A program made the translations under genes and the position numbers. DNA of 63,126 nucleotides, filler included, from Hausera hauseri (Eukaryota): assembly GCA_046269625.1 (NCBI GenBank). It is 9 parts of 9 records of this genome, joined end to end, with 100 filler letters (N's around TTAATTAATTAA, not from the genome) between each part and the next. Parts side by side here need not be neighbours in the genome. Positions count along the whole stretch, not along the records: positions 59,130 to 63,126 come from JBJURY010830970.1; 8 more parts are not named here. One strand, written 5' to 3'. Positions 31,760 to 63,126 of this stretch are shown here, piece after piece; the stretch's first letter is position 1; every line of letters starts with the position of its first letter. The notes below the pieces were generated by a model, which did not search any database, was not told the DNA's origin, and worked only from the letters and a program-made list of their open reading frames with translations.

Positions 31760-31835
31760 TTGACAGACAGTGGATTGGAGCCAATCATTCAACAGGTCAT
31801 GATCCAATCAAACACAAAGGGGGCGGGACTACTTG
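31760..31835. promoter_or_regulatory. Bidirectional promoter-like segment
   Basis: ATTGG/CCAAT boxes (~31773-31785, ~31804) and GGGGCGGG GC-box between two divergent ATGs. Confidence 0.4.
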
Positions 31836-31908
31836 TACCGGTCAAGACGAAAAAAAAACCAGAAGACCCTCGACACAAGTTTCTGCAAGGAGTTCAAAGT
31901 TCGTTAAA

Positions 31909-37539: not shown

Positions 37540-38126
37540 AATATATTTGAACATATATGTACCAGTAAATATATTTGAAAATATATAAAAAGTCAGATAT
37601 TCTATATATGCTAAAATATATTGTCAAATATACCAATGTAATATATAATACATTATATAATATGTAAGGAATTGCCACATTTACATATTAAAAAATATAT
37701 GCCAGAATATATTATTAAAATATATTTAGATATATTAGTTAATATAATATAAAATATATTAAATTTATATATTTTACAATATATTTTAAATATATTGTGT
37801 GACATATTGTTCATTATATTTTGGCATATATGTGTAAATGTATATTCTCATATATTTTTGAATATATGAAAAGCGGCAATTCCTTATATATTATTACATA
37901 TATTACAATATATTGCATTGATATATTTTTCAATATATTTTACAACATATATTTAATGCTGTAATTTTTATTTTATTTTAGTGTATTATAATCTATATCA
38001 ACTGATAAAAACAGCAATAACATTAATCTTGTCAAATACTTTCAAACAACCCAAAAATCCAAACATTATGAAATACAATATATTGTTGAAAAATATATGA
38101 TAAAATATATTTTTCTTGCGTAAGGG
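37540..38126. mobile_element. AT-rich subterminal region and possible terminus of a CACTA/EnSpm-like DNA transposon
   Basis: Dense AATATAT/ATATATT units; inverted pair TAAGGAATTGCC (~37666) / GGCAATTCCTTA (~37875); ends TTTTCTTGCGTAAGGG. Partner TIR not in the contig. Confidence 0.4.
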
Positions 38127-38233
38127 TAACCATNNNNNNNNNNNNNNNNNNNNNNNNNNNNNNNNNNNNNNNNNNNNTTAATTAATTAANNNNNNNNNNN
38201 NNNNNNNNNNNNNNNNNNNNNNNNNNNNNNNNN

Positions 38234-40299: not shown

Positions 40300-41570
40300 G
40301 CTGAGGGACCGAGCATGCCCGCCCCGTTGCACTGCATCTCCTTTCTCTTCTTATTTTTTCCAATAATAAACATGTGTACACATTGAGGGTTGCATACAAA
40401 CATACGTCACACATCCTTTATTCTGCATTGTCTTCCTTTTTCGACCCGTCCGATTTTTATTCCATCCACAATAGCCTAACTTGTTACCTTCCGACTCTCT
40501 GTCATCTTTTGCATCCGGGAAGCATTCAATGATTCTTACTATCCATTTTCTTATCCGTGGTGGATCAGACCCTGACCTTCTGCCAAAAACTTAACCAAAA
40601 CCAAATCTAGTCGTCGTCTTGCCGACTCCACACCAAATACATCCCCAAATCTCTCTTGCACGCATTTTTTTCTCGACAAGACTAATTCGAGTCGTACATG
40701 GTTACAATTTCACTTGCAATGGCTTAAAGCCAATCATATCACAGACTCCTTTTTGAGGGCGAACAGCTTGCTGCTACTACTTCCAGCAAATATTAAGCAG
40801 CAAATTAATAATCTGGCCGACATACTAACCTCTGTAAATCCACAAGGGTCAGTTCTGCATATCACTGACCCTTTCATTGACAGCATAATTCAGAAATACT
40901 TTAATGGACATGCCATCGGAAATCAAATACCGTCGGATTTCCTTAAAACTGCAATCTTGCAACTGAGCTCCTTAGGCGCCACTCCTATAAACAATGTTGA
41001 TCTTCTTCGTCGGTATTTTCTTTCACCATGCCAACCTCCATCAGAGCACTGCTAACGGTAGTAGACAACTCAACGGCCCTTGAAAAGCTCACCTTATTGG
41101 CAGACAAAAGTTTTAACATTTTGCAATCTAATAGTTCACAGACAGTAGCCATAGCAACCGCTCATACACCGTCACACGCAGATAACACTCTATTTTTACA
41201 ACAACTGCATATGATGCAGAAGCAATTCGACACACTCCAACAGGCAATTTCTGCAATCACAGCCAAACTCAGTGACTTTCCTGTGCCTCGAGGAAGCGAA
41301 AACCGTGTTTCGCGCAATCGTAGCTTTTCCAGGCACTCTTTTCGGTCCAAATCTAGAGATGGTAGAATAATTTGTTTCTATCACAACAAATTCGGTAAAA
41401 AAGTAATAAAATGTGTTTTAGGCTGTCGATTTTACGATGAACGCTATGCAGTAGACAACCCAATATGCATCTATCACACAAAGTATCAATCCAAGGCTAT
41501 GTCGTGTGTGCCAGGATGCAAAAAGTATAAAAAGAATTCTAGTTTTTCTCCATCGTTGTCTCCTCGTACT
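40300..41570 (+). mobile_element. gag: Family A Gypsy copy 3: leader plus gag only, 3'-truncated
   Basis: LRANSLLLLLPANIKQQINNL nearly identical to 28615-28890; double knuckle CFYHNKFG..CIYHTKY. Confidence 0.9.
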
Positions 41571-42419
41571 CATTGTAAGGAGGAATTTAAACAAATATTA
41601 ATATTTAAATTCAATTCAAAGTTAAATCAATGAACAGCCAATACAAAGTCAGGATATTCAAAAAAGGATGAAAAGAAGAATCATTTAATGAGTGAAGGAG
41701 ATAATTGTTATACAAAACTTTTATAATAAATTTCTTACGCAGAATTCAATCTTACAATCATCGAGTGACGTTGAGGTCGGAATGGTAGAAACGCGATCTA
41801 CTAACAAATACACCATCAAAATTTGGTTGGTTCTTGCAATTGAAAATTTTGACTTTCCGTTTATAAAACTCAAAAGTGTACATAACGTATTATAGACAGA
41901 TTGACTACCATGATGTTGTCAAATATATCGAGTTAATTCATAGTTGGGCAGTCAATGCGTTATATGATTAGAATACTAAATGGAATTATTCAAAATTCAC
42001 CTGAAGTAACACTCGTTTAAGACGTACAGTTTATTGCTAGTATGGTATACATGAAAAGAATTTTGCTAAGATTAATAAACATCTGACAGGAGAATATCAC
42101 TTGATGTAACTGAAGTCTAATGATAAAATTATGATAAATCGAAAGCGAAGTCAAATGGTGCAATTTATGGATTCACCATTTGACAAACACGTACTTAGCA
42201 GAATAAATTCGAAATTATTTTGTTTAAATATACGTAATTAATCAAAAGTTTAAAAATGCCATCTACCACGATGCATAAAAACTCACCGAGCAATATAACG
42301 ATTCTCGGTTTTGATTTGATATGGTTGGCGAGTTATTCCACTACGCTGTCTCACGAAGGTATTTTAACAGGTGCCATGCGTGGTCCTTTTCTTTAAATAC
42401 AAGGAATGTTATATAGATA

Positions 42420-42790: not shown

Positions 42791-44265
42791 GAGATACAGA
42801 AAATATTAAAAATGAAAATTCTCCCGAAATAAGTCCACCGAAGAATTTAATTAATGGAAGAATTAGGTCCACTTATACACTCTCATATTCTTAAAAACAA
42901 AATTAAGAACTTGATNNNNNNNNNNNNNNNNNNNNNNNNNNNNNNNNNNNNNNNNNNNNTTAATTAATTAANNNNNNNNNNNNNNNNNNNNNNNNNNNNN
43001 NNNNNNNNNNNNNNNAACACGTAGTATTTGGTATTATTGACTGCTTTTGGCGGGCACTGTACAGTCATGGGATTTGGAAAATTTTGTCTATTTATATACA
43101 TTTTAATTTCTCATTAAACATTATTGTATATTATTTTTAATTTATTGTATATTGTATGTTACATTTTATTGCATGAATTTTAATTTATTTTATATCGAAA
43201 TTGCATTTGTTTGGAATTCTAATTATTATTGAGAAAGACAATTTCAATAAGTGCATAATAAAAATTATTGGACAAAAATAATTTGATAAACTATTCAGTT
43301 ATCCACATATATTTTACCTTTGCATCTAGTTCACGAAATATGTCGAGACCCGACTGTTTAGTTGGGTAATCCGGAGTATATGAGAAATAATATAAATGAA
43401 ACATTATGTACATAATTTGGAAAGAATATTGAGTCCTTTTTATGTTGTTATAAATATTGAGTGTGTGTGGTATATGTCTGTATGCGTGTATACATATTTT
43501 ATAAAATGTAAAAAATGCTTTTCTTAATTCTAATGCCTTTAGTGGCTCATTTTTATTCTTCCGATTTACAGTTGGATTTTTCAGATAGCCACCATGTAGC
43601 TCGGTATATCACCCATGATTCACGGCTTGTGGTAAGTGGGTTTTTAGGTAGATTAGTCATTCGGTTGTCATGGGGGATTTGAAAGGTCATAGACTGTGTG
43701 GATATTTGAGTTTTTTGGCTGTTGGGAGATTTTGCTGTGACAATAAGGGCTATGTGGGAATTTCGGGTTTACTAAATTGCCAAGTTTTTGTCAGTTTTGG
43801 AATTTTCAAATTTGCGATGACTAATTAGTCATCGATGTATTTAAATAATTTTCTGTAAGTATTTTTAGTCAACCTAAAAATCCAGTAAAATGTTACACAG
43901 CAATTCAGAGCATTCAGTGTCTGTAACTTGCGGAGCCCGTCCAGTGACATGGAATAAGAAAAAAATATCACGTGGCCCCGAGACAGTAACGCATGCACAT
44001 GCGATAAGTATGTTGTTGTCATTTACGTTCAGCCTATTTGTTGTTTACATGGACAAGTCTGACTTAAACTAATTTATTATGTTGGGTATGAAGTAGCTAT
44101 TTCTTAGCTTTACGTGTTGCAGCCAGGGGTGAAAGTAGTTTTGAGTTCTTGCCAGTGCTATAGCATAAAATGACATTAACTGTCCACCCCTGAAGAAGGT
44201 AGTGTTCTGATGGCCGGTCGTTTACAACAGCGGCTCGTGAGACAGGTGGGGCGGACAGAGGATGG

Positions 44266-45986
44266 CAGGGTATCTGCAGGTTTTAGCAAGTCAAATTTAA
44301 GACTTTTTAAGACCTTTTTAAGACCACCTTGAATGAAATTTAAGACCGAAAATACAGGTGATGTGTCGCTCAATAAAAACATGTTGAATATAAAGATATT
44401 CAGTGCTCTCTGGTTAAATTAGCTGTATTTTAAAAGTGCAGAGTTTGGTTGGAAACAGCTAGTATAAAACGCATCTAGTACATATATTCATGGTATTAAA
44501 CTTGTGTTTTAACCACCAGTTTTGCCTTTATACAAAAATAAATCATCCAGCCAACTGTCAATAAACATGCATTTTAACCTGCAGCATCACTATCTAACAA
44601 ATGTCTGAAGGAAGAGGTTTTAACAACTTTTCTGTAATTTATTTTTATGTAATATCAGTGTTTTGAATTGAGGGACTCAGATAAATTTGAAAAAGTATAG
44701 CACATAAAGTCCTTTATATAGATAAGTTCTTTTTTATTTTTTTAATTTATTTATTGTGTTTGACAGATTCCTCCCCTAAAAATTCAAAGGATATATTTAC
44801 AGGATTATAGCTCATGTAATCATACTGATTGATGATTTGGGATCCTTCTAGAAGGCAACCTGTAACCTGTTATGGTCAAAGGTTTTCTGTTACTAGTGAC
44901 CAATGTGTGCTCAACTCCTGTAGGAGGTGGATACACTGGATAGTCATGCTATTTATTTTTCATATTTGATCATTTATGAATCACAGTTTATCACAGTTCA
45001 TCAGTATAGTTGTAAAGATAATAAAAGTTTATCACATCCAAACAGACAAAATCCCTCATTATTGTTAAAACATTTTGTAGAATTAGCTTGTTCTTCATGA
45101 ATTAGATGGAAAATTAATTAATGTCTCTGTTGTGATCTGGAGTCTACAAATATTTATTTTTTAGCGTTAATATTGTTTAATAACTGAAGCAGCAGCTACA
45201 ACTCATCTCTCACCATGAGAGAAACAGGATGAGCGCGCTCCCGCTGTGACCCGGTTTCTTTGTCGGATCCGAAGTTTGGTCACGCGCGTAAGTTGCACAT
45301 GTTGTTTATGTATCAAAGTAACGTGAAATGTTCACGTGTATTTGGCCCGGTGCGCTTTCTATAGTGAAATAACCACAACGCTCCGTACACACACACATTT
45401 AACACGAAGTTAGACTTTAGGTACAAAAGACCGGGCAGGTCTCGGTTCTGGAAGATGGTTGTAGTAACAGTGATTCAGCTCAGGTGTCTCCTCGGCTGCA
45501 GCAAACTTTTCACACGCGAACACATACGTTTAATACTTAGACGTTTAATGATTTATTACATAACTTTACCTTCATGCAAGGCGGGAGGTTCTGGTAGCGG
45601 GTCGAGGTGTCTTTGGAAAAAAGTTTGATCAACTCCGATTAGTTTACCTGCAGTTCTGATTCGGCTCTGAGACTAAAGGACCCGCACTGCTCTGCTCTGA
45701 TTGGCTAAAACTGTGAATCTGGTTCTTTTCATTGGTTGAAAGCAGCGTCAGTTAATCCATCACAACACAATTTTTTTTCTTTTTTCAGCAGGAAATGCGC
45801 TGCAGAGAGACGGCTGGGGGAGACGAAGAACTTAATCGCTTCTGCCCGACAAAATTTAAGACCTGAGTAACAAATTTAAGACCAACTTGCACACTTTTTA
45901 ACAAATTTAAGACTTTATAAGGCCTTAATTTTAGATATGTGAATTTAAGACTTTTTAAGACTTTTTAAGGACCCGCGGACACCCTG
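44266..45986. mobile_element. Non-autonomous hAT-like DNA transposon
   Basis: TIRs CAGGGTATCTGCAGG / CCCGCGGACACCCTG with multiple TTTAAGAC subterminal repeats at both ends; no TSD seen. Confidence 0.7.
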
Positions 45987-46130
45987 TAGCTTTTGTGTTA
46001 GCCCCGATGCTATCATATATGTATTAGCTTTAGTGTTAGCCCCGATCCTATCACCATATATATGTATTAGCTTTAGTGTTAGCCCCGATGCTATCACCAT
46101 ATATATGTATTAGCTTTAGTGTATTAGCTC
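45987..46130. repeat. ~43-bp minisatellite, about three copies
   Basis: TAGCTTTAGTGTTAGCCCCGATGCTATCACCATATATATGTAT repeated. Confidence 0.9.
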
Positions 46131-49100
46131 AGCGCTACACATTCTCCTCTCATCACTGAGGTCCTCCATCCACATGGTTATTTCATGTTCAATCTTCTAT
46201 GTTCTTTGTTATTAGCAGATATAACAAAGTAATGGCATAAAAAGTACCACCTTGGCATGTAAAGAGTTTGCATTTCTGCATTAATAAACAAGGAGTACTT
46301 AAGATAGCCAAAATCAGTGCCTGGAGACTGCTTTTGATGATGTAATGGGTAGAAACTATCAGCTTGAGTCTGCGGACCCAAGGTGGAAGAGGCTGACGGA
46401 GTTGTGAACTGAATGGAGCTTATTACAAGTCTATCAACTTATGTCTTGCAGTTATTACTCTGTCTTCCAACACTGTATTTTGTTTTCTTACAGTACTATT
46501 TAAATTTTAAGTGTCAACTCTGTTCTGCTTAGGTTAAGCTCCAAAAATGTCTATTATGTTGTTGACATTTCTTGTATTTGTTGTAATCATGTGTGCTACT
46601 ACATATTATTTCTGATGTATTGGTCTATATTCATCAAACAATAAAGAATAAAGGCGGTGGAACAAAATGATCAATTTTGTCAATACAAATATGATTTTAC
46701 TGTCTATGCCTTTGATGTGAAAATCAGTGAACAAAGAAAAGTCATTTACAAAATTTTAGTGTGATCTCAATAGTTTTTAGATGTCTTTGTTTGATCAGTG
46801 CCGTATAGTCATACGAAATAGCCATTCAGAACAAAGGGTGTCTGCAATCGCAAAGTGTGAGTTTCTTTTCTGTCGGCAGAGTTTGCGTAAGAACCTATTT
46901 AATGTATAGACAGAAAATAATCAATGTTGAGAACAATTTATTTTAAATGTAAAAACAGTTTATTGACTCCAGTATGAAATATGAAAAAGTTACTAATATT
47001 CGAAGAATGCAAAATATCGATGTCAAATTAGGTCCAGAAATCATCTTAATTTCTGTATTTTTAAAAACTGATTTTTACACAAATTGATTATATATGTTAT
47101 CAAGCATGACTGTTGTCAAAACGTATGGTGTTCACCTGTGTGCACCTCCCTGTCTCAAGTAATTGCATTAAATTAGAACAGAATTTGAAATCTGATTAAT
47201 CGCACTTTCCTGCTGCCTTTCTTACACCTTTGCAGACTTGTCTTTCCATCCAGTCACGGCATGAACAAACACCCTGTAAACTTCAATCAAACCAATCAAT
47301 GTTTACTGCCATGGTGCGCAAATGTGGTCATTGTGAGCCAATATCCTGTGTTAAATTTGTTTTGATGCCCTGGCACACCTGGTTGAAAGCAATTATTTTC
47401 TAGCTTTTGCAGAACACATTTGAGGAAATAACTATGTTGTCATGAAATTACTTGAAAAAAGTCTCCTCTAAGAATACTTTTGCTGAAAGCTAAAAAAGTA
47501 TCGCATTTTTTGTAATAAATTTTAAAAAGTAAATTGATCACATAAAATTTACATGAGTATTAAAAGTTGAAGTATTGAACTATTTTTCTATATTACAACT
47601 CTGCTCACGTTTGGGTAGTCTGACGCCGCTGTCATTGAAACTGAACCCTAACCGTGTTGATGTTGACAATATTTTTTAATTTTGTGGGGCCCACCGCAGG
47701 CAAACCAAATACAGTCAGTGGAACATCATGTGAGTTTCTGCTAACCCTGAGATTGACATATTAATAAATCAACCATATAGCTCAAGTATATAAAATGGTT
47801 ATCCACAAACTGTCTCATCTAACCGTCCAACCAAAACCCCAACAGCATCATGCTGGAATACTAGGGTTAGGGATACAACGTTACAGCCAGTCCATTTCAT
47901 CTTTTATCCGTGCTCTATATCCCACCAAATGCGATGACAGGAAACTTTGACCCTGCAGCAACAGCGAATGAGAAGTTGTGAACTTAACTATGTTGGACCC
48001 CCCAAAAACCCTATTTCTGAACATATTTTGTGTTTTTACACATTTGAACATGCACATACATGCACATAATTCTCATAGTCACACCTGCATGAGCCCAGAC
48101 AGGGCTGATTCGAATTTGGTTTCTCTAGGCCTTAGGTGTCTCAAGTTCAGGGTGTTTTTATTAGTCGCTTATTTTTGTCCTTGTCTTTGCAAGTTCTTTT
48201 GGGGGTCTTAACATGCATGTAGAGCATTCATAATCATAACATTTAATTATCAGCACCCCATGTAGCTGTTTCTATAGTTTGGGGCATGTACATGCTTACT
48301 GTCAGCAGTGGCGGCTGCATGACAGTATCCACGGTAATCAATAGAAGAAAAAGCAACATGGAGTCCACCAAAGGCCATTTCACCAACTCTTGCTCTTCAG
48401 GCAGCCAAATGGGCATGTAGAAGCTACCAAACTGTTAACAAGAATCTGCACAAGTCCCACTTTGAAAAAGACAAGGTGTGACATATTCATTTCCAGGAAA
48501 GTTGGCAACATTAGTGTGAACAATAGCGTTCTTCCTGTTTTTGACATAGGCCTGCTGCTTTAGGAAAGCTCTAGGATGCACTTACTGGCAACACATGTGC
48601 ATTACATGTAATTATATTATTCTGCTTTAATTTATCTCTTGGTAAATGTTACTTGTAACTTTGTATGTGCTTGGAGAGCCGAGTTACGCATGCAAAAGTG
48701 ACATTTTGTCCGCAGTGGTTAAGATTAGACTGGAAAGGGATGAGGGGGTGGTGCATAAACTGTCTGACAGAGGGAGAAAACTGACCAACATGCTAAAATT
48801 TAAACCATTTCGGTGCATTGCTTTGATACTAGTGAGCTTAAAATGCTTGCTTTTGAAGCAGATGAGGAACTGTAGTACCCAGAACTACCCCCAGTTCCTG
48901 GATGTTTATTTTCACTCACAACGGCACAGTTCTGCTACAGCCAACCATCTGACACCTCAGGCTTACCTAAAGAAGTACAGAATGGATTTGTAGGAAACTT
49001 TCATGGAAATTTTATTTCTTACAGAGCTATTGCTGACAGAAATCAGGGAAAAATTGCATGATAGGTTTTAGTTAGAATTTGTTTTTACCAATTTAAAAAT

Positions 49101-50935
49101 ATGCCCCTGCTGACGTCAAATAAAGTCAACACGAAGACATGAAATTTTCAGCAAATGTTTATCAAACGAAAAACAGTAGAAATAATTGTGTAGACAGCAT
49201 CAGGTGTGCTAACAGTATTGGATGCTGTGTGTGGTGCATCTGTAATAACACTTTGTACACCTTGGATTCATCAATGCGTAACTGAAGCAGCTATCCAGCT
49301 CAGCCACATCTGTTTGCACATTGGCAAACATTGTCCATCATCAGGGTTATTTCAGTGAAAATACATAGGTGTACCACCACCTGCACTGGTTAGAGGGGGC
49401 ATCACATTATTGAGCTGGTCTTCCTGATGAGCTCATAACCACTTTTTACAAGCTGTGGAGATAAGCTGTTGCTCCAACTTACACTATAGAAGATGGCTGA
49501 TAGCACATCCGCGTCACAAAAAGTTCTTCCTGAGCCTCCCTTGTACTCGTAAAAACCTAAGCCACTTCATTAAATATCATCAGCAATGACCCTTCCTGTG
49601 AAGAGTGTCAGTGTTGTGAGTTCAGCCTGTTCAACTTCTCGTTCAGGTGAACAGTAGTCATAAGATGAGAAGATAAGCTTATTTCTCTATGTTGTGATTA
49701 AATCTTCACAAAATATATTTGAGCATAACCATCCATATCCAAACCCAAATAGTTATTAATCTAAATATATCATTTGTTGGAATTGTTTAACATTTTCCCG
49801 AATATTATATTTTCAAAGGTATATATGATATGTTATTTTTAACAGTGAGAGTAACATTCGCTATTTGTGAAAAAAATTAAATTAAAATTTTAAAAATGTG
49901 TGAATTTTTATTATTTGTTAAATTTGTGGTGACATTTCAAAACAAGTCCACATAAACCCTGAAACATTAGAACACGCACAATCAACACACATACACTTCT
50001 TACTCACTGGCTGAATTAACAGCCTAAACACGGGCTTAACAACTTTGCCGGTTCAGTGACTCAACATGAATCAGACAAAATATAGACATAATATACATAG
50101 ATTTTCTAACATTTTGTAGTAAGCTCCTTTTTTTGGCAAATGTAGAACACTTTAATGGGACAACTATGAAGCCAGTAAGTTTAGAAAAAGTGTAAATATT
50201 GTCTACTGCTTGTATAACAATGTAAATCAGCTGTCCCCTCAATCACAACAAACAGCAATAAATGTACAAACCTGTAGCAACAGAAGTGAGTGAATACCAA
50301 CTTTTGTGTTAAATTATATTTCACAGTCTGCACTCACTCCTTTCAAAAGAAAGACAGAAAATGCATTGTGGCAATAACAAGTTCAATATAAAACTACATT
50401 TTAAACATGAAAACCCTGAGAAATGCCACTTGGAACTATGTAGCATAAACGCATCCGACATCATAGTAAGTCTTGATCGCAGGATGAAGGAGTTTGAAGT
50501 CCTTGACTGGCGTAGTGTTCTGTAAATGTCCTTGCAGGTTCCCACGTGTCATCCCATACTTTCCCACTAAAAAAATGACAAACAATATTCTAATCAGGTT
50601 ATGGATTTATTGAAGGACAAGAAACTTGATCACAGTGTTGTAATTTAATATACACATGTATGCTTTATTACTGCTGTATTGCATACATGTAATTGGAGAG
50701 GTAACTTCTGAATCATATCCACAAAAGGTCCAACAACTTTGCACTCCATCAAACAGCACTTGTATGAATAGAAAACTAAGTTTTTTGTATTTATCTTTAA
50801 GATGCATAAGTGTTTTTAAAGAATTCTGTGGTTATCAGTTGCATGCTACGAATAGATTATCAATAATTTTATTTTCTGAGTAATTCTGGTACAATTATTA
50901 GAAATTTACAGTTCTAACACAATCTTAAGGCTATA

Positions 50936-51130
50936 GAACGGGCATCGACAATTACAGGCCTAGAGGGGCCACAGCCCTGCATGTTTTACTTGTTTCTCTA
51001 CTCCAACACCCCTGAATTGAATGAATGGATGATTATCAGGCTTCTGCTGAACTTAGTGGAGGTAATTATCTGACTGAATCAGGTGTGTTAGAGAAGGGAC
51101 TAAAGTAAAACATGCAGGGCTCCAGACCTG
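50936..51130. mobile_element. Teleost-type MITE (diverged)
   Basis: GCCCTGCATGTTTTACTT .. AAGTAAAACATGCAGGGC inverted arms. Confidence 0.7.
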
Positions 51131-51582
51131 ATGATGATGGGTGCTATAGATTCAGCAGCCAAAACTAATTAAAAATTCTGTCAGACATGAACATATGCTT
51201 GCTTCTTTGTCACTCACAACACTGATTTTAGATCATGTCTTGATTGTGCAGCTCTTATGTGACAATTACGGTCCAGCAGAAATAAATTAAAATACTGCAT
51301 GTAGTTTAATTTCTAAGATTACACATCGAAAGATTATTTTACATAACAATGTATGTTTTGCCGATCTTGTGAAAATGTCAACAAAGAAACAAAAAAGCCC
51401 CACTACTTTTGTACTTTAGTTACTACGCAGGCATAATATGAAACAGAAATTTAGCATTTTCTATACAAGCAAAACTAACAACTTACCACGCAGAGCACGG
51501 AAACCAATGTACTTTGACTTCTTCTTGTCCCTACACATTACACAAAAAAAAGTAAATATTAGATCTGAAAGCATTCATTCGT

Positions 51583-51765
51583 GCAGTGGTTTTCAATTCC
51601 GGTCCTCGTGACCCACTATCCTGCATGTTTTAGTTGTTTCCCTGCTTTGGCACACCTAATTTAAATGAACAAGAGATTGTCAGGCTTCTGCAGAACCTAA
51701 AGCATGGGAAGCATCTAAAACATGCAGGATAGTGGGTCCCGAGGACCGGAATTGAAAACCAATGC
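51583..51765. mobile_element. hAT-like MITE with ~50-bp near-perfect TIRs
   Basis: GCAGTGGTTTTCAATTCCGGTCCTCGTGACCCACTATCCTGCATGTTTTAG versus its complement ending at 51765. Confidence 0.9.
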
Positions 51766-52694
51766 ATTAGACAGCAAATCAATTGTGCCTTTACAATGAA
51801 CAAAGTAGTTTAGAAATATTAAGGACAACAAATGTTGACTCTATTCCCATTAGTGCTTCAACGTAACTATTTTCAAAACGCAGTAATTAGCGTACCACAT
51901 ACTACTAATAAAAGCTGCACGGTGGACAAAAAAACATTACAGTTTATAGCCATTTTGTAACATTAGAAAAGTGTTTACATGAGTTACAATGTGTATGTTT
52001 AAGGTTTTCTTTCATTTAAGACTTCATACACTATACTCAGTAAATTTCAATGTTACAGTAAACGAAAAATCATTCGAACAAAGTTGCCACATGAAACCAA
52101 TAGAAGGATATTTTCATTTGACTGAAGTCACACAGAATGCAGGACAGTTCATTGACTGGATCTTTGCATTTATTATCCTTTATTGTACTGAAGAGAGAAA
52201 ATTCGTTCTCTGCATTTTACCCATCGCACATGTGAACACACATGTGGAGCAGTGGGCTTTCAATTACAGAACCCGGGGAGCAGGTGAGAGGTTTAGGGGC
52301 ATTGAAGAATGGACCAAAGGGGTTGGTTTGGGGAGTTGAACCGTCAGTGACTCTTCTCTAACCTATACACCACCACTCCCAAAAAGTCCTGACAAAATCT
52401 GTAAGGCGAGAGAATGATAAGAATCTCTAAAAAGTTATAAAAACTAATGATGACTGGTGACATTAACGTATGTTTTTGAGGGCTTATCTATGTGAATCTC
52501 CTGTCACCGTACGTTAGATAATTTTACGCTAGCTTATTAAAAAAGGTGTCTAAAAATTTGATCAGATATACAGTTCTTTTCCTCTGAATGTTTTACGTAC
52601 CTGCAAAATTTTACATTGAAAATCAATTAAAAATATATACACAAAATTATACAATAATTTTATATTTTTGCCTACGCCAAGGTTAAATTTTGTG

Positions 52695-52935
52695 TTATTG
52701 AAAATGGTAATTTCAGCCGATGATGTCACCATCTTATAGCACAAATGAAAATTTTAACGGCACAAACCAGCACAAACGTAGCACTAGAAAAGTAGACCAC
52801 TTTTGTTTGTTTTGGAGCAGGATGGGGTGGTGGTGACGTCATCGGCTGAAATTATAATTTTCAATAACTCAGAAACAAAAGCAGCACAAACAAAACTTTT
52901 TATGGCACAAACCAGCACAAACGTAGCACTAACCA
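52695..52935. repeat. Local inverted plus direct duplication
   Basis: AATTTCAGCCGATGATGTCACC / GGTGACGTCATCGGCTGAAATT inverted; GGCACAAACCAGCACAAACGTAGCACTA twice direct. Confidence 0.8.
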
Positions 52936-55629
52936 TTCAGTCTATTTGCTGTAATTTTTAACGTGGGTGGGGTGTCAGCTTCACACAGCTTATTATTGCT
53001 GGTTTTGGTAGCCGTGGCTTCGTATAAAGTTGTACAGATCGTCTGTGGAGTAATGGATTTTCATTCATTTCGCATACAGACCTATAGGACTGTCTTATCT
53101 TTTTTTTTTAATTTATAAGCTATTAAGTTTCAGAGATGCTAGCATCTCCCCTGCTCTTTTGGCCGCTGCGGACTTTGCTATCTATGCGGCCGGCAGCACC
53201 ACCCCCCAGCACACATCTACGCATTTGTCAGGTCCGTCCTATCACAATTGAAGCCATGGGTGTAAAATGCACAGCAAGCCACTGTCTAACATGCCTATTC
53301 ACCAAGTAATAGCTAAGGAAATTATTGGTTTTATTGGATATTTTACTAACCCTTGGGAAAAGACATTTATTAGATGACAAGAAACAATTAAAACAGCGCT
53401 AAGTCTTACAGCGTTTGTCCTGCTTCCTGTGATTGCTTCAAACTGGAACACCTTCTGCCTACTACATTTTCGGCAACCTAAAAAAGAGGACAAAACAAGC
53501 AAATATTTTATACACAAAGTAAGAAAATAAATAAGCGAAAAAATACAGAGCCCTATTACACGAATCTAGGATATGGGATTAAGATGGGATTTTGGTGTAA
53601 ACCTGAATAAATTAAGCTTTGAATCAGCTGCATGGGAGGCGAAGAACTTGTGCTCTGAAACTAACCTGGTCCTGATGTGGTTTAAAGTGAAGTTTATTTA
53701 ATCTGTTTATGTTTCTGACCAGTAGATAGTCAATTTACTGCAAAACAGTTGATCTAACAAAACTTTACAATCTTAAATCAACTAAAAAGTATTTTTGATC
53801 TTGTTTTCAGACCGATATACTAAACAAGATCAGAGTATGTTTGTTTATTGGTATTTGGCTTGAACTTAAATAGCGCCTTATCTGTCAACTTGTAACCCAA
53901 GGCTCTTTAAACTTCAGGCATTCAAACAATAGTGGTTTTTATAGGGGTTATAATTATTAATTTGAAAAGATTCAGTATAATCCAATAGTTGAAATTATTT
54001 TGTGTTGGTTAATTTCTGCAATGTCTGATCAGAATTAAGTGTAATATAGTTAATATTTTTTACTTTACATCACCATATTTGTCAATATATTCGTTTGTTC
54101 ATGAGATTACATGTGAAAATAAATGACAAAAGTTAATATCAACCTCAGATTCCTTCAATAATCTAAGTGTAATAACAATCTGTCATGCCATTATGCCAAG
54201 TCCACCCCTTCTTTTTAAAGAAGAGTAATTTCAGTGTTTGGAGATTGACGTCAGAGACCCATTAAAGATAATCTGTCATTTTTAGCCCTGTTATCAGTCG
54301 TGGAATTAAAACACCTACTAAAGCCAAGAAATGGAAAGAATAAAATGGCAGCAATGCCGTGCCACCAGTGGGTTGCTACAGTTAGTGACTGTATGACCAC
54401 AGGAGACATAAATATAAATAAATTAACTTCAATCAACCACCTTCCAACCAGTACTACAACTGTTCTGATGCTACAAATAAGTTATCAACTTTTCTCTGTC
54501 CTGCTTTGCACTGCAAGCACTGTTATCTACAGTCTGCCTGCAACCTCATTGACCTCATGAGTAAAAAGCATTTTAGTAAAAATGATGGATTTCTGAGTGT
54601 GACAGGTGTAAGTTTGAAGTGTTTACATGATTCACCTAAAGAAAATGTTTGATATGAAAAAGGCCTCAAAAAACATCTTGCCTTTGCAATTAATTAATAA
54701 TTTCTGTTGATTCGTAGTTTAAGGTCTTTTAACTTTTATTGTAGTGTTATACAACAGCATTCATTACCAAAGTAAATTAACTCATTTGGGCGCATTAATA
54801 CATTTAGAAATAAAATTCAAATTGTAGAGTCAAACAGAGTAATGTCAACATAATTACGAATTCTGATTAATTTTCAACTGAAAATGTATACAAACTAATG
54901 CAATGTAAAGTTATGATTGAAGAAAACCAGTCTTGAGACTGACTGCAGACTGACTGTACATAAAATTTACGACAGGTCTGGGTGCAAAGTAGCCCATGGT
55001 AAAATTATTTTCACAAACTAAAACTTTCCTTGTTAATATCGCTGGAATATTGCCATCTAAAATAAAAATAAATAATAATTACATTAAACAATACATCTCT
55101 GTTCTTTATGACTGTTCTAAAAACAGCAAAACCATCCTGTGAAGAAGTGGGCGGAGTCTCTGCTTGGGTTACCAGGAGACCGGCTGGCCTCAGGTTGGGG
55201 TGGGCTGGAGTACAGTTTGTGACATCCTAAACGGTGGTGTTTGATAAAAATTTAATTTCAAGAGATAAAAAAATAAAAATACTTATAGTATAACTACCTA
55301 TGAGTGCATTTTTTTGGTGCTTCGACTTTTTTATAAAGCATTACAGACAGAAGTAAAAAATAAAAAAGTGAATTTTGCATATTAGGTCCCTTTTAAGAAC
55401 AAATCTGTTTGTACCAACAGTTTTTGCATGATGCTCAATGAGATTTACCTTAAGTAATTTTGAGGGGATAGGCAAATACAGTAAAACAAGTAGAGAAAAA
55501 AATATGGTGCAGTGGTTCAAAAGTTCTCATATAAGGCATAAACAAGCATAAATGTATGACATTGAGTCAATGTGTCAATGTGAAAGAAAGTTAATGAGTT
55601 AATTGAAAGGGTATGGAAAAAATAACTTA

Positions 55630-57120
55630 CCCTTAATTTTTACTTTTTCAAGAGGGCCTCTCTGACTCAAACACTGAGTGATGGCATGGTCAGCTGGTGG
55701 AGATGTTTTTTGAGCAGCTTTAACTTGTTTTTTCTTTTTCCGTAAAGGCTGGGGGGATGGAAATACTGAAGGAGAAATAGGAAAAAGATCAAGCACCAAC
55801 AAACTTTCTTTCTGATTGTCTGGCTGGATCTTCAGAGGCTCATCAGTAAGCATCTTATGATGCGTCTCAGACTGGTCCTCAGAAAGCATCTCATGATGCT
55901 TCTCAGGCTGGGCCACAGCAAGCATGTCATGCTGTGTCTCGGCCTGGTCCTCAGTAACCATGTCATGCTGTGTCTCGGGCTGGTCCTCGGTAACCATCTC
56001 AGGCTGTGTCTCGGGCTGGTCCTCAGTAACCATCTCATGCTGTGTCTCGGGCTGGTCCTCGGTAACCATCTCAGGCTGTGTCTCGGGCTGGTCCTCGGTA
56101 ACCATCTCAGGCTGTTGAACACATTCTTCACTGGATGGAACAAACTGCTGTTCGGTGGAGTTTTGGGGTTGCACTGATACAGAAGTTTATAGTAAACATG
56201 TAGTTTCACACAAAGCACACATACATATTGAGATATCTATATACTAAACATATATATAGTGTGTGATTTTATATACAGTATAATTCTTTGTTTTAACATA
56301 TTTGGGCAATTTTTTTATGGTTGCAAGCTGCGCAGCCCACATAGTAAGCTCTACTGCTCTTCACAATCCAAGTAACAATACTTTTTCAAACAGTCAAAGA
56401 CGTTAAACATTGTTAAAAAATACAATTTTCTACATATGTACAAATTTAACACTTACCTTGACACAACAGAAATTCATAGGATTTTTGCATTTTGTCCAGG
56501 AAGTCTTTTGTTGTAGAACTGGGTTCCAAATATGTGATAGTGTCTGCTACCCACTGGTTATTTTGACCTTTTGCTTTTTTGCCAATAAATAAAATTGGCT
56601 TGTAGCCGATTGCATCAAGTTTTCGAACCTGAAATTGATAAAAACAAAAGAAACAAATAATTTAAAACCACCATGTCATTAGCTGCCTGAAACTATTGTT
56701 TATCTTCAGAAAACAATTGTAAACATTGTTTTATGTTGCCTAAATTACATATTCTACAGTGTGTTATCATGGGAAACTCTTAATATAATCATCTGTATTG
56801 TCTAAGTTAGAAAGTAAAAATAAAAGGACATGTGTAGATCACAGATTATACTGTCCTCAATTATAAGAAGGATCAAATAAAACAAACAGGTTTTCAGTCA
56901 TATAAATTCATACTTACAGCAATACGGGCATAATCCATGATTCGGCCAGTGTTTCTGTGTTTCAAAACAGATTGCCCCCATTGGCTATTCAGTGACTGAA
57001 CTTTTTTATTTACTTTTTCTTTGGTGGACAGACTTCCAAAACACACATAGCAAGTCTTTCGATTTGCCTGATTGGGGGTCTTGCACGCTTGACAGGGACT
57101 GAATTTTGGGCGTGTCATGT
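55630..57120 (-). pseudogene. Multi-exon gene: N-terminal C4 zinc ribbon plus acidic 12-aa repeats
   Basis: MTRPKFSPCQACKTPNQANRKTCYVC exon with GTAAGT donor; next exon (~56456-56630) has a stop; exon with the EMVTEDQPETQ(P/H) repeats. Confidence 0.6.
55850..56115 (-). repeat. 36-bp coding tandem repeat (~7 copies)
   Basis: GCTGTGTCTCGGGCTGGTCCTCRGTAACCATCTCA units. Confidence 0.95.
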
Positions 57121-58739
57121 TACCCCCCAAAAAAACAACAAAAAAACAAAAATCTGTGAACAAGACAAAAAAACGTCTTTGGGAGACTTAAAAAAACTAA
57201 TGGGTGCAGATCAATGAAGAACCTGTAGAGAAAAAGCGGAAAGTGTTCAGAATTCAGGCAGAAATCGGTCAGAATCAAAACCATTTTTTTCTCCAACCAC
57301 TGTACGGTCACTAGAGCAGATCAGTAACTTATATCTATAAGTACACACATTGTTTGTATTGTTGTTTGCTCTGACACAGAGATGTGAGCATGTCATGGTG
57401 TACGAGAAGAAAATTCCACCAATTTACTGTGTGTTCATTCATAAATGAATCTAAATTCAGATATACTTACTACACAGTAATAGAAAACATACACAAGTGG
57501 AGAGGACTTTGCTCAGCTAATGGATGTTAGACATGCTTTTAAATGTACAGTACATCAGAGCAATAACAATACATTAAATTTTCAGTGATTTGATGTCAGT
57601 ACGTTTAATCTTTGATCTGATTTAAGGCTATAATGCAGTTGAACCTCCAACCTAAGCACACTGAAGCTTTCTGCAACACTTACACTTTAAAAAGTGGGGG
57701 AAAAAGTAAGAGTATACACTTCTTTGTGACTTTAACATGGATAATTGCGGCCTAAATACAGACAAAGTTGAACGTGTTTGGCTAACAGCTGCTAGCTTAA
57801 CGCACATTTGTAAAAACATGCATCTAAATGCCTTTCATCATTCACTATTCCACTGACCTGTAACTACATGTAACAAACTGTTGAAAAACAATACTTTGAA
57901 TTATTGTGCTTTAGTACAACCATAAAGAAAGTTTATTTTACTCACGCGTGTGCAGTGGTCGCTGGTGGTCGCTTGAAATGACGTCAAGAGAGGGGGAGGA
58001 GAGGCGGAGCATTTTACGCGGCTTCCGGATGTTTACTCTGTTTCCTTGACAACGAGCTGGTTTCGCCAAAGCTAGCTAAACATCTCATGTTTATAAGATA
58101 AAAAAAGTACCAAAAAATTGTTAAAAAAGACATAAAGGAAACGATTATCACATTTACGTACAGTTTGAAAGATTTCGGAAGAAATTTTTAAAAGTTCACG
58201 CCAATCAGAAGACTAATAATAATTTTAACATTCAAATTTTGCGATCTTATTAGAGGAGCTTTTGGGATAATCCGACCAAGCCGAATTGATAGTCATCGCA
58301 CTAAACGCCGAGGGTTCAAATAATGTGCAGCTGAGACCTTCCTGACTTGAGATATAAATGAATTTATTTTGTAGGCTACCAAAACAATAGGTTAACAAAT
58401 AGTCCAGGAATACACTTGCACCATATAAAACTGTGAACTCAACATCTGCAAAAAAAACCTTCTCATGGAGAGGTAAGTCATAGGCTGCCAATTATAATGT
58501 ATTACTGCGTAAAAAGCATTAAAAATAGCGTAAATCTTTTTTTCATTGACAGCCCCATTTCGTCAAATAATGACGAGATGGGGCGCCCTTAAGCGGCACA
58601 ATGTGACGCCGAGGGTACCCTTGCAAAGCGTCAAACATATGACGGGTAGGGAGTGAGAACGTGTTGCTCCTGCACCAGGGAGATAAAATGAGGAGATCCA
58701 GTCAGCAGGAATCTCCTTTCACTAATCAGCACCCAATTT

Positions 58740-58740
58740 T

Positions 58741-58815
<75 letters not shown>

Positions 58816-58816
58816 T
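58740..58816. repeat. (TTTA)n microsatellite
   Basis: Direct reading. Confidence 0.98.
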
Positions 58817-59133
58817 CAATTTTTTTTATTAAAAAAAAAGCACCCAATTTTTTAGAGAGGTTCTGCTGGACAAACTCCTGGTATATTGAGCTTCTGCTGC
58901 TGGATTTTCCTGTAAAAATGTATGAATTTGCACAAAAATACAAATTCTCCTGCATCAGGGAGATGATGATGCCGACTAAGGTGTGAGTGACATCATAATG
59001 ATTGCTGACTAAGGTGTGAGTGACATCATNNNNNNNNNNNNNNNNNNNNNNNNNNNNNNNNNNNNNNNNNNNNTTAATTAATTAANNNNNNNNNNNNNNN
59101 NNNNNNNNNNNNNNNNNNNNNNNNNNNNNTTTT

Positions 59134-59430
59134 TCAGTTAGTACGATAAATTCGACGGGGGAAGAAGAAAATTTGCCCGAATTTTACCGACTGTTTGAAA
59201 GAGCGCGAAAGATTGTTTTTCCTGAGGCTATTTGGTATCTGAGCCCGTCGGGTACGAATATTTCTCCATCTACGAGAATTTCTTCTTCGATTTCTATTTT
59301 TATTTTGCGCTGACATGTTTCCCGCGGTCTTTTTAGGACCTGGTCGGATGCCATATCTTCGTTGATGATTTCGTCTTCCCATCNNNNNNNNNNCTCCGAC
59401 TATCATTTTGTCGTTTAAAATTTCGGCCAC
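59134..59430 (-). CDS. Arg/Asn-rich basic ORF (contains a 10-N gap)
   Basis: MSAQNKNRNRRRNSRRWRNIRTRRAQ. Confidence 0.4.
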   Translation of the reverse strand: MAEILNDKMIVGXXXXMGRRNHQRRYGIRPGPKKTAGNMSAQNKNRNRRRNSRRWRNIRTRRAQIPNSLRKNNLSRSFKQSVKFGQIFFFPRRIYRTN

Positions 59431-59592
59431 TTTCTGTTAGAAAATATTCGAGTCTATTTGATTATTTATATTTACTTCGGATAATCCTGTAAGGTGGGTG
59501 TCGTAATTATTGATTCGTTGTCTGGGCGTGACAAGCGTGTAGAATAGGGTATCTCCGAGTAGATTTGTTATTGTACATTCTAGAGGGGTCAA

Positions 59593-60235
59593 TTAATTTT
59601 GTTGATCATAAGTCAGATTGGAAGCCACGATGACTATTTCTTTATTGGATACGGTCGGGTTATATCTGTAGGATTTTGTGGCGTATTTCAAATAGTCGGG
59701 TTCGACTAAATAAAACATTTTTCCTGGTGGTGGGATTATCCAAACGGCCTCAGATTTTATCACGTCCACTCCAAACATAATTCTGTTCGTAAGGGAGCGA
59801 ACTTTAATTGAATTCCTTTTGTGAACTGTTATTCCAAATTGATAGCATGATTCGGATCCCGGTTAACTAGATCGCCCTGTTGATGCGGTCTAGTATATAT
59901 ATATTGATACTGAGAAATTTGTCTGGGAAATTTATGAGATCCTCCAAGAAGAAGGAGGTCGCCTTAGTCATCTGGATGTAAGCCAGGACTTTATTGCTTT
60001 GAGAGTACCTCTTTAGATTATTGGGGATTTGTTGGACTGAGGAGTAGTTTAGGCTATAAGTATCATTGTTAATGATGACGTGATATTGAATCGTCGAACT
60101 GGCATTAAGCAAATGTGTCTTTGCGTTTTCGAACCAGTTCTTGCTGCAAATTATCGACTGTATTTCTGAGGACACTGCAACGAAATCAGTTAATAGATCA
60201 TATAGACAACTTATCATTAACACAACGGTTGTCAA
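59593..60235 (-). pseudogene. Orphan ORF(s) downstream of the membrane protein gene
   Basis: ORFs 59867-60235 and 59593-59778 (open upstream to ~59862) on the element's sense strand; possibly one frameshifted gene. Confidence 0.35.
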
Positions 60236-60351
60236 ATGTACATTATGAGTAATCGTTGTGCTTCCTTTTTATTACACAGCGGGGTAACTAGATAACGTCT
60301 AGTTATCCTTATTCGTTGAATCGCCTTATTGACGATTCTAAGTAGTAATTG

Positions 60352-61779
60352 TCAGCTTGGATTATCTGTATCCAAGACATTCGGTACACGTCGCATATCT
60401 ATCCTAATCCAGTTTGGTCTGTGACGTTTTCGTATATGATCGGTTATCTTTATTGCGAGTGCTAATACAATTAATAAGATTATAGGACATACAGTACCTA
60501 TTATTTTTAGTTCTATTCGGGAAGGGGTATAACTCGCTTTTGGTAGCTGTGAAATTTTGCTCGAGCTTATATTCATTTTTCTATTTATTACTTTTTGCTG
60601 TATTCTGGCTTTCGTCGAAGCAGCTAGTGACTTGGTAGAAATCATTGTGTTGTCATCACCATATAATTGTAATATGACCGTATATTTCGTATTTGGACTT
60701 AAATCGGCACATGGTACTACTGTATCGTCTGGTGTGATTATACCTTTCGCTATTATCTTTTGCCCTAGCTTACAGATGAGTTTAATTTTATAGAAGTTTA
60801 AATCAGGTTGGCTAGCTATAACTAAAGAGGTGAGTGTGGAGATTATTGTGACATTTTCTAAGACAGAACGTTTCTGACGATACGGTAAAGCGTAAGGTCG
60901 GATATGAACTGTCATTTCTCCGATATTTATCTTTGTTTTATTAGACTGTCGAGGGTTCGCAAGAGGTGCCATGACACTTGGTTGCTGGTCGTCATCATAT
61001 TCAATGGCATTTTTGAGTCGAACGTATGTTCTGGGCCCTTCCAGGGTTAGAGTCTTGGCGATCCCTGAATCCTTTCGTACTAACACAAATTCTAAATCGT
61101 AAGTTTTGCCTCGTAGGATATTACAGCAGACTCTGAGGTGTTCGTCAGTTAGCCGGCATTTTAACGTTACCCTTTGCTTCTTTTGTACACCCGCAAGTCT
61201 TATATTTACTGCTCTGTTCTCTTCCAGCTCTATCATTGTTTTAATTTCGATACAACTTCGTCCGCTTTTAAATCCTATTGGTTTAACGGTGAGTTGGGTT
61301 ATTATTATTTCATCTAATTTGATTGCGTTCATTGTTCGTCTATTGGGAACCTGGATAATGCCTCGGCACTTGGTATATTGCCACTGATAGGGGTTTTTAT
61401 GTCTTTTGATCAGAGTATAGTATATAATATAATTTCCAGAGTCATTTATTATACACTCCGTTGTGTTCTTCCAATAAGTAATGCCGCGATCATACTTTCG
61501 TTGTTTCGGGCTTCGTTCATAATCATGCTCGTGGATTGCCCGAATTCCTATCATATACCGATTGGGTAGCCTTTCAAATGCCATGAACTTTATACATTTT
61601 TGGCCTTTCCTTGTATAGGTTATCTTGTGATAAATATATTTCACCAGGCTACTTTCCCATGTTTCATTTGAAGGATATGTTCTCATCCATGGATCAAACG
61701 GTTTTGTCGACCGGGCCAACAGGCCTGGTGCCCCTATAAGGACCAATAGAGAGAAATATTTCAATATTTCGTAATCCAA
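60352..61779 (-). CDS. Env-position type-I membrane protein with FN3-like domain
   Basis: Signal YFSLLVLIGAPGLLA; RQKR|S furin-like site; DLSPNTKYTVILQLYG FN3 signature; TM IIGTVCPIILLIVLALAI followed by a basic tail. Intact 475 codons. Confidence 0.75.
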   Translation of the reverse strand: MDYEILKYFSLLVLIGAPGLLARSTKPFDPWMRTYPSNETWESSLVKYIYHKITYTRKGQKCIKFMAFERLPNRYMIGIRAIHEHDYERSPKQRKYDRGITYWKNTTECIINDSGNYIIYYTLIKRHKNPYQWQYTKCRGIIQVPNRRTMNAIKLDEIIITQLTVKPIGFKSGRSCIEIKTMIELEENRAVNIRLAGVQKKQRVTLKCRLTDEHLRVCCNILRGKTYDLEFVLVRKDSGIAKTLTLEGPRTYVRLKNAIEYDDDQQPSVMAPLANPRQSNKTKINIGEMTVHIRPYALPYRQKRSVLENVTIISTLTSLVIASQPDLNFYKIKLICKLGQKIIAKGIITPDDTVVPCADLSPNTKYTVILQLYGDDNTMISTKSLAASTKARIQQKVINRKMNISSSKISQLPKASYTPSRIELKIIGTVCPIILLIVLALAIKITDHIRKRHRPNWIRIDMRRVPNVLDTDNPS

Positions 61780-61818
61780 ACTTTTCTTTTTATGGCTGAT
61801 GGCTCTTACAAATTCTTG

Positions 61819-63126
61819 TTAATCTGCTCTTAATTTACTTTCTTTAGGGGCAGGTTTATACCTGTTGACATGTACTTTAATTCTGACGTTATTTTTCTTT
61901 AGACATACATTGGGTAGGTCCACTTTTTCTATTTCGTACGGTCCCTTATAAGGTCTATCCAACTTGGATGTTTTGCCTTTCTTATTTAATGGTGTATATA
62001 ACATCATTTTATCTTCAACTTTAATTTTGGGTTGCTTACTTTTCTCGTCGTAGTGTTTCTTGTAGGTCAACTTATACTCTTTCTGAATGTCTTTCACTAT
62101 CTTATAGTCTAGTTGTAGACGTTCTTGCTTCAGCTGTTTGTATTCGTCTACTTCCATAAGATGAGAAATGGGTCATACATTAAAATCCAGATCGATGGGT
62201 ACCCTGGCGTCTCTCAAAAACGTGAAGTAGAACGGTGTTTCTTTTGTAGCTTTGTGCACCGATGTCCGATTTACAAACACGCAGGCATTAATATATTCGT
62301 ACCAATAGTCTTGTCTGGTACTAACAACTGTTTGTAATTTATTTTTTAAGTCACCAATGTACCTTTCGACCATTCCATTATTTTCTTGGTGGCCTGGAGT
62401 TGATCGTAACTTTAATATGCGCATTATACCATAAATAGCTTCCATTACGTTCCCAGTTAAATTCGAGGCTTGATCTGTCAATAAAATTTTTAGAGATCCA
62501 TAATTAATTACAATATTTTCTACAAATTTTTCGGCGATTGTATCAGCTTTCATGTCCGGCATAGGTAATGCCACGACCCATCGTGTGAAGTAGTCTATAA
62601 AGACCAAGATGTATTTATTTCCATTTCTTGTTAATGGTAATGGTTTTATTATATCCATGGCGGTAAATTCAAACGGAGCAGGAGGATTCTCCCATACTTT
62701 GAGGGGAGCTTTGAACTTTGATCCAGTATTTTTGCGTGTGGCACAGTTTGCAACTATCATACCATTCGTGAACATCTTTCGTCATAGTCGGCCAAAAGTA
62801 TTTTCTTTTCAATTTACTTATGGTTTTTCGAGTCGATTCATGTCCACCGAGAAGTCCATCATGGTATTGAGTCAATAGTACTGTTCTGTTCTTTTTAGGT
62901 ATAACTAACGCTGGTACATCTTGGTGTATATAATACAAAAGTCCTTCCTTCTCCTTGTACGCATGGCTAAATCGAGCCAGGTAGGGGGCTAACTCCCCCT
63001 TTTTTTCATCTTCACCCTTTTGTGATAACACCATGCCGACTCCATAGTCGCTTGCGTCTGTCGCTAATATGAAGGGTTTAATCATATCTGGGTAGACTAA
63101 AATTGGGGCGTTTAATAATTTTTGTT
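61819..63126 (-). mobile_element. pol: Gypsy pol 3' part: RNase H start (internally deleted) plus integrase
   Basis: KPFILATDASDYGVGMVLSQ; HDGLLGGH..YFWP..CKLC; AMDI, IDYFTRW, LTDQ, HQENNGMVER; YKGPYEI. Confidence 0.93.

Follow-up and report, generated by a model that had tools for sequence, protein, structure and literature searches.

Several retroelements that carry a membrane glycoprotein in or beside their polyprotein have been described. Burro/GYPSM1, the giant Ty3/gypsy elements of planarians, are reported as high-copy elements whose single polyprotein contains domains captured from cells as well as a membrane glycoprotein in the same frame (PMC6431247). In Atlas virus and the nematode Belpaoviridae, a glycoprotein follows Pol in an uninterrupted Gag-Pol-Env polyprotein and has a terminal transmembrane helix (PMC9094657). 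Errantiviruses, which are Ty3/gypsy elements with env, carry a glycoprotein gene with a signal, a furin site and a transmembrane segment in the env position (PMC13524379). In the soybean Sirevirus SIRE1, a single stop codon lies between pol and an env-like frame (PMC2829016, PMC2194720). Here, we describe an open reading frame (ORF) of 488 codons behind a decayed Ty3/gypsy pol at 60352-61818 (minus strand) of a 63,126-nucleotide stretch of DNA from Hausera hauseri (assembly GCA_046269625.1), hereafter called the window. The ORF is shared by a high-copy element family, likely of flatworm origin. Taken as a whole, the reading that it is the tail of the Pol polyprotein and a type I FN3 glycoprotein for attachment or adhesion rather than fusion stands in our view at about even chances.

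The ORF can be likened to Atlas virus in its expression, as a Pol-fused glycoprotein, and to Burro in its domain capture. In Burro, the env is a fusion glycoprotein placed between gag and protease, whereas the ORF lies behind integrase, and the section on Burro mentions neither an FN3 protein nor any fusion downstream of integrase (PMC6431247). Atlas virus belongs to the Belpaoviridae and has a phlebovirus-like Gn/Gc class II fusogen, whereas the ORF follows a Ty3/gypsy pol, carries FN3-like cargo and gave no fusion fold (PMC9094657). The errantivirus survey reports only F-type and HSV/gB-type Env, with the order GAG-ENV-POL in flatworms, and a count of the words fibronectin and immunoglobulin in the main text gives 0 for both (PMC13524379). 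No description of an FN3 protein carried by a long terminal repeat (LTR) retrotransposon was found in the literature, supplements, Repbase and subscription papers being outside the scope of the search. Cellular type I FN3 receptors (FNDC4/FNDC5, class I cytokine receptors and receptor phosphatases) share with the ORF a signal, an FN3-like ectodomain, one transmembrane segment and a short tail, and the ectodomains of receptor phosphatases undergo furin cleavage. The ORF differs from them in that it has no significant sequence homology, WSXWS motif or signalling domain and sits in a retroelement frame.

Two other pieces of the window, 12942-18354 (minus strand) and 20219-24537 (plus strand), are Burro-like. 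Between them they hold Gag-CCHC, ubiquitin-like, Bcl-2-like, gB-type env (PF24664) and protease domains, the Bcl-2-like domain being in frame with a signal segment and the gB-type env and being followed by the protease. This domain set is the one given for planarian Burro elements (PMC6431247). The ORF-bearing piece resembles the Burro-like pieces in composition, and the 5' half of its own element lies outside the window.

Nine pieces with no relation to one another make up the window, with an identical 100-base spacer at each of the eight joints; the ORF is on the last piece, which runs from 59130 to the window edge. The ORF is open from stop to stop in the same frame as the integrase C-terminus, from which one stop codon separates it in this copy, and its first methionine is codon 45, beyond a signal-like segment. 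An earlier note on this DNA had likewise placed the ORF in frame with integrase and seen no early ATG. When the 3.7-kb region was shuffled 1,000 times at the mononucleotide level, the longest ORF had a median of 99 and a maximum of 208 codons.

We then analyzed how widely the ORF occurs in the family. In sequencing run X1, 2,650 of 15.5 million contigs aligned to 59394-63126 and covered all 30 bins, and 2,273 of them were less than 95% alike, in keeping with a multi-copy Ty3/gypsy LTR retrotransposon. Summed contig depth, which is not equal to copy number, was 193-6,366 in the ORF bins and 183-10,334 in the pol bins; for exact-match contigs it was 4.7-10.7. The junction between integrase and the ORF was bridged by four of the eight pieces listed (of 60), each reaching 38 nt or more into either side and differing from this copy by 12-19 letters. 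Base composition was A-rich in the ORF and in pol alike (A 0.38), and the trinucleotide correlation of the ORF-bearing piece was 0.80 and 0.88 with the Burro-like pieces versus 0.54 and 0.53 with the other gypsy pieces. The ORF is thus encoded family-wide by a high-copy Ty3/gypsy element, a conclusion of which we are nearly certain.

It could be argued that the ORF is carried along as a neutral passenger, or is a host gene without introns that abuts a dead element by chance. No LTR is visible, the piece being bounded by an artificial spacer and the window edge so that no flank or LTR can be read, and the differences peculiar to this copy are mostly amino-acid-changing. On the other hand, thousands of diverged contigs cover the ORF, independent copies bridge it to integrase, its composition matches that of pol, and the codon-position bias described below points to family-level constraint. 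Because many diverged copies cover the ORF and bridge it to integrase, it is not a host gene outside the element, although the LTRs are not seen. The earlier note had named such a host gene as the finding that would overturn its reading, and the bridging contigs speak against it. We consider this explanation extremely improbable.

The codon positions of the differences were also analyzed. Among the best-supported 40 of 519 differences, a subset biased towards invariant sites, 17 fell in the ORF, and only 1 of these was at a third codon position (p 0.0096 versus one third); for integrase, the number was 2 of 13. Within the same 40 of 519, the ORF differences private to this copy were at first or second codon positions and amino-acid-changing in 16 of 17 cases. 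We read the codon-position bias as a family that is invariant at first and second positions in the ORF frame, combined with neutral decay of this copy. The chance that a frame of this length stays open at 1-3% random substitution is 0.57-0.18, so the intactness of the ORF says little. For this reason, the candidate explanation that the intact ORF reflects selection on this copy was rejected. The contrast that the earlier note drew between the uninterrupted ORF and the damaged Pol gives no support for retention in this copy, given the same survival figures and the amino-acid-changing nature of the private differences.

If the ORF belongs to the family, the question becomes how it is translated. 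At the stop codon between integrase and the ORF (61819-61821, minus strand), contig comparison showed a sense codon in 18 contigs of other copies, or 82.6 of 149.8 aligned depth (55%). The stop, which the earlier note had suggested comparing among copies, is therefore not family-wide. Since many copies have a sense codon at this position, translation of pol likely continues into the ORF, which would form the tail of the polyprotein. On the most economical reading, the family has one unbroken frame from Pol into the glycoprotein, and the stop of this copy interrupts it. The copies represented by these 18 contigs have no need of readthrough, and an open frame across the junction in other copies makes splicing dispensable. 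The 12 differences listed for 61730-61812 include none that creates an in-frame ATG. We hold it to be quite probable that the ORF is the C-terminal module of a Pol polyprotein, from which its protein is likely released by host signal peptidase. The earlier note had left readthrough, splicing and an original Pol fusion side by side; of these, the 18 contigs that lack the stop favor the fusion.

Programmed readthrough would mean that a sub-lineage keeps the stop and makes less membrane protein than Pol, as in soybean SIRE1. The single in-frame stop is followed by CAA and may be retained in up to 45% of aligned depth, and SIRE1 gives the precedent of a pol and an env parted only by a stop (PMC2829016, PMC2194720). 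SIRE1 is a copia-type element that uses readthrough, whereas more than half of the aligned depth here lacks the stop, and a family-conserved stop of the SIRE1 type was not found among the aligned contigs (sense codon in at least 55% of depth). A known readthrough motif is CARYYA, which the six bases after the stop do not match. The RNA downstream of the stop had no notable structure (z -0.97; 28 of 200 shuffles fold as well), and one further stop is unremarkable in a copy that already carries other disabling lesions. Readthrough is therefore unlikely in our judgment.

Flatworm spliced leaders end in AUG, and a spliced or trans-spliced subgenomic RNA could supply the start codon that the ORF lacks before its signal segment. 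An in-phase AG does end at 61786, immediately before that segment, and ORF3s of rotifer LTR elements are said to come from spliced messages (PMC5408684). However, the AGs at 61786 and 61781 lie in purine-rich sequence with no pyrimidine tract, the sole AG with a good tract (61734) is within the signal core and out of phase, and the frame is open across the junction in other copies. The splice acceptor that the earlier note had proposed near 61782 was discarded, as the AG there is out of phase and has no pyrimidine tract. Expression by splicing is quite improbable, and translation as the tail of Pol is the route we prefer.

The layout of the ORF product is that of a type I membrane protein. Translation and the contig differences show a basic linker with no ATG at codons 1-16 (61771-61818). 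It is followed by a predicted internal signal sequence at codons 17-36 (61711-61770), where residues 17-35 have a Kyte-Doolittle 19-mer value of 1.61 and form a helix in a low-confidence whole-length model; judged by eye, signal cleavage would occur after about residue 36. The N-terminal ectodomain, residues 37-270 (61009-61710), may hold two FN3/Ig-like beta-sandwiches, a lead from Pfam and ESM Atlas. The sole R-x-x-R of the ORF is the putative furin-type site RQKR at residues 314-317 (60868-60879). The segment after RQKR is mildly hydrophobic (1.42) with a sequon at 322, and it opens the membrane-proximal FN3-like domain of residues 318-405 (60604-60867), which was assigned from PDB phmmer, AlphaFold2, Foldseek and VIA-align. 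A predicted transmembrane helix at residues 438-456 (60451-60507; hydropathy 2.64) is followed by basic residues (net charge +4 over the next 15 residues), and a short cytoplasmic tail of 32 residues with the stop completes the frame (60352-60450). The ORF has 6 N-glycosylation sequons and 10 Cys. The signal peptide, furin-like RQKR site and transmembrane helix seen in the earlier note thus recur here as features predicted from hydropathy and sequence. Rodriguez et al. cautioned that signal, furin and transmembrane features alone are insufficient to call an env (PMC5408684), and their caution applies to this ORF too.

To describe the fold, we modelled residues 318-405 with AlphaFold2; the predicted local distance difference test (pLDDT) score was 73 in the best of five models (66-73). 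Foldseek with this model returned monobodies and fibronectin modules at a TM-score of about 0.6-0.7. In VIA-align, the best 25 rows had Z 8.1-9.3 and a root-mean-square deviation (rmsd) of 2.1-3.0, and 18 of them were fibronectin, tenascin, cytokine-receptor, CD45 or Tie2 chains; the alignment to fibronectin 4gh7 gave Z 9.2 and rmsd 2.7 over 86 residues. All 5 PDB phmmer matches up to E 10 were fibronectin, with E values of 0.026-0.16 that are summed over repeats. Pfam gave 0 families at E up to 10 for residues 318-405, and the fn3 gathering threshold was not reached. The models and structure matches make it very likely that this region would fold as an FN3-like beta-sandwich.

For the N-terminal ectodomain, Pfam Fn3_Dep-1_3rd matched below its cut-off (E 0.03-0.14), and ESM Atlas placed residues 37-313 with FN3-clan clusters at 0.80-0.81, which is the level of a lead. 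Internal similarity among the putative repeats was not significant, as 46, 370 and 205 of 500 shuffles scored equally. Residues 37-270 are probably two more beta-sandwiches, again as a lead. Of the FN3 signature and possible further repeats claimed in the earlier note, the first is now backed by the model and structure matches at 318-405, while the two repeats stay at lead level.

With the whole protein as a query, ESM Atlas returned an unnamed 255-residue cluster at 0.92, and FNDC5, FNDC4 and IL11RA at 0.90-0.91. Sequence searches for homologs of the ORF found none at E 0.01 among 7,998 near-length candidates and none at E 10 among 911 shorter ones. A full HMMER scan of 1.84 billion representative proteins gave 2 matches, a Nematostella Fat4-like cadherin and an unnamed tandem-repeat protein. 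Both were rejected as homologs because their scores are sums, over 6 repeats in one and 15 in the other, and the highest-scoring single stretch reaches 18.6 and 4.5 bits, respectively. The PDB by sequence gave only CD1d for the whole ORF and the N-terminal part (E 1.9 and 0.89), PHROGs gave no match, NCBIfam gave one chance-level match, and no relatives of the ORF were found in viral or metagenome contigs.

The env-like position and layout, together with the mildly hydrophobic segment after RQKR, might suggest a new kind of fusogen in which furin cleavage exposes a fusion peptide. Yet in the FN3 model this segment makes up the first strands, and it bears the sequon at 322, which argues against a fusion peptide, and the model is a beta-sandwich with no helical bundle. 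The ORF had no Pfam match to F-type Env and no match to PF24664 of the HSV/gB-type (chuvirus-like) Env, while 4 other ORFs of the window did match PF24664 (E 1e-11 to 3e-19), and no fusion protein was among the 50 BFVD rows. A fusogen is therefore very unlikely. The earlier note had seen no likeness to F-type or chuviral/gB-type envelopes, which the Pfam scan and VIA-align confirm, but its label of envelope finds no support if taken to mean a fusogen.

On the preferred reading, which is built from anatomy and general cell biology, translation of pol would run on into the linker, and the internal hydrophobic segment would target the nascent chain to the endoplasmic reticulum while integrase stays in the cytosol. 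Signal peptidase would cut near residue 36, the ectodomain would be glycosylated, and the helix at 438-456 would serve as the anchor. Furin may then cut at RQKR, so that the distal part would be shed or held on a membrane-anchored FN3 stub. By analogy with Burro, the protein might bind the target cell from particles or from the producing cell, with fusion left to a separate gB-type Env. A role in attachment or adhesion is predicted at slightly less than even chances. We favor attachment beside a gB-type fusogen because flatworm gypsy elements have a gB-type env between gag and pol (PMC13524379, PMC6431247), and because the ORF-bearing piece is compositionally similar to the Burro-like pieces of the window.

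The ectodomain could instead be directed at the host. By the same polyprotein route, a captured receptor-like ectodomain, either shed by furin or displayed on worm cells, would act as a ligand decoy or adhesion modulator. The cytokine receptors and FNDC4/5 among the ESM Atlas neighbors, as well as gp130, IL-12Rb1 and CD45 among the VIA rows, are compatible with such a role, and Burro polyproteins carry host-directed domains such as BCL2, BIR and MATH (PMC6431247). However, the 1.84 billion representatives yielded no relative that would indicate a donor gene, the composition is entirely element-like, and the FN3 similarity is generic. WSXWS is the motif of class I cytokine receptors, and it is absent from the ORF translation. 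We regard a host-directed role as possible but well short of even chances.

A more specific form of the attachment reading is a two-part entry apparatus in one giant flatworm gypsy polyprotein. It would have a gB-type fusogen before the protease and surface proteins released by signal peptidase behind integrase, the first of them a captured three-domain FN3 receptor-like attachment factor. This proposal is speculative, and we hold it to be rather improbable. No dedicated FN3 attachment factor of this type was found described for any retroelement.

Several points weigh against the reading of the ORF as a family-wide, Pol-fused FN3 attachment protein. Besides the bias of the 40 differences mentioned above, all family data come from the one run X1 of short contigs, possibly the assembly source, and the synonymous excess in the leader and signal was not significant (6 of 12, p 0.12). 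The remaining 45% of aligned depth at the stop (about 67 depth units, about 10 of them this copy) may come, apart from this copy, from other copies with the stop or from contigs whose difference lies too near their end to count. Depth dropped steeply, being about 1,270 where integrase ends and about 50 over the signal segment, and 44% of what aligned there continues unlike this copy. A large number of copies with integrase must therefore either be highly diverged in the signal region or continue differently, and the drop fits a fast-changing signal region as well as subfamilies with different tails. No gB-type env, gag, reverse transcriptase or LTR is physically linked to the ORF-bearing piece within the window. 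As to the fold, Foldseek gave no match at E 0.001 for the 318-405 model, and the two best VIA rows, tied at the top, were bacterial non-FN3 beta-sandwiches. ESM recognition of the ORF was 1849 versus 2300 typical for known families, and AlphaFold2 of the whole length without an alignment had a pLDDT of 35 and was left out of the fold searches.

The pol upstream of the ORF, also on the minus strand, has the order RNase H followed by integrase as in Ty3/gypsy (Metaviridae), with the reverse transcriptase beyond the window. An RNase H remnant at 62966-63124 is internally shortened and runs off the window (Pfam RT_RNaseH_2 E 1e-12, profile 14-66 of 100). It is followed by the integrase zinc-binding H2C2 domain at 62729-62902 (Integrase_H2C2 E 4.9e-19), the integrase core at 62392-62679 (rve E 5.7e-10), in which D,D-35-E was read from the translation, and the integrase C-terminal part at 61822-62172, which shows a GPY motif, of the GPY/F kind, in the translation. 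PDB sequence matches of the core included Ty3 Gag-Pol (E 1.8e-5) and foamy-virus integrase (E 2e-10). Three lesions mark this pol: RNase H is shortened, the frame changes on the way from the zinc-binding domain to the core, and an in-frame stop lies after the core at 62173-62175. They agree with the earlier description of a frameshifted and deleted Pol next to an uninterrupted ORF. No DNA similarity was found between the ORF-bearing piece and the rest of the window, where tblastn gave distant integrases only. Integrase relatives were not found in viral or metagenome contigs, and a search for relatives of greater length found none among 150 candidates, which is weak evidence.

Behind the ORF, a second, broken coding stretch common to the family lies at 59394-60268 (minus strand), as judged from translation and contig cover. 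It has a hydrophobic start (1.84) and three sequons, followed by stops and frame changes, and it weakly matches phrog_24552 (E 1.8e-4, of unknown function). Another contig differs in length near 60265. The stretch may encode another membrane or secreted protein, a hint at more than one such cassette. The 205 bases directly after the ORF stop (60146-60350) were skipped or replaced in one contig of depth 104.8, a weak case with 27 letters on its short side. The tail or linker region behind the ORF varies among copies. At the end of the piece, 59134-59436 (minus strand) is an Arg-rich, very basic open stretch by a 10-N gap, with no Pfam match.

The spacers, at 8530-8629 and seven more places, are N runs flanking a short AT-only word. 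They join unrelated contigs, so adjacency across a spacer carries no meaning. The CpG observed/expected ratio was 1.09 in the ORF-bearing piece, 0.91-1.31 in six other pieces and 0.49 in two. These CpG ratios suggest a source of unmethylated, invertebrate-like DNA mixed with vertebrate-like DNA; the two depleted pieces, 30480-38133 and 43016-59029, are probably vertebrate DNA within this assembly. Another gypsy family, C-rich and possibly CsRn1-like, is represented by decayed pieces at 2329-6603 (plus), 25015-29040 (minus) and 40576-41633 (plus), and two of the three are related as inverted repeats (83-87%). At 29782-30378 (minus), a fragment of axonemal dynein AAA_7 (E 3.5e-7) and one of COR-B (E 4.8e-6) share a single frame, which resembles a patchwork of host-gene scraps beside a retroelement. 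A tandem repeat with a 36-base unit at 55817-56140 lies within a 195-codon frame with no Pfam match. No tRNA was found in the window.

In the metazoan survey, the reported kinds of Ty3/gypsy env are F-type and gB-type, both viral in origin and both fusogens (PMC13524379). An FN3 receptor-like glycoprotein that the whole family carries as the last part of Pol would add a third kind of surface protein, of apparently cellular design and probably non-fusogenic. It would show an LTR retrotransposon placing a receptor-like molecule on membranes by means of a polyprotein processed by signal peptidase. The finding bears on how non-retroviral LTR elements choose target cells and on the question of host effects of their accessory genes. 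If the two-part apparatus were real, the FN3 attachment factor could contact cells of the worm or of the worm's fish host. If the host of the element is a fish parasite, as is suspected, the ORF protein would be a high-copy candidate surface antigen.

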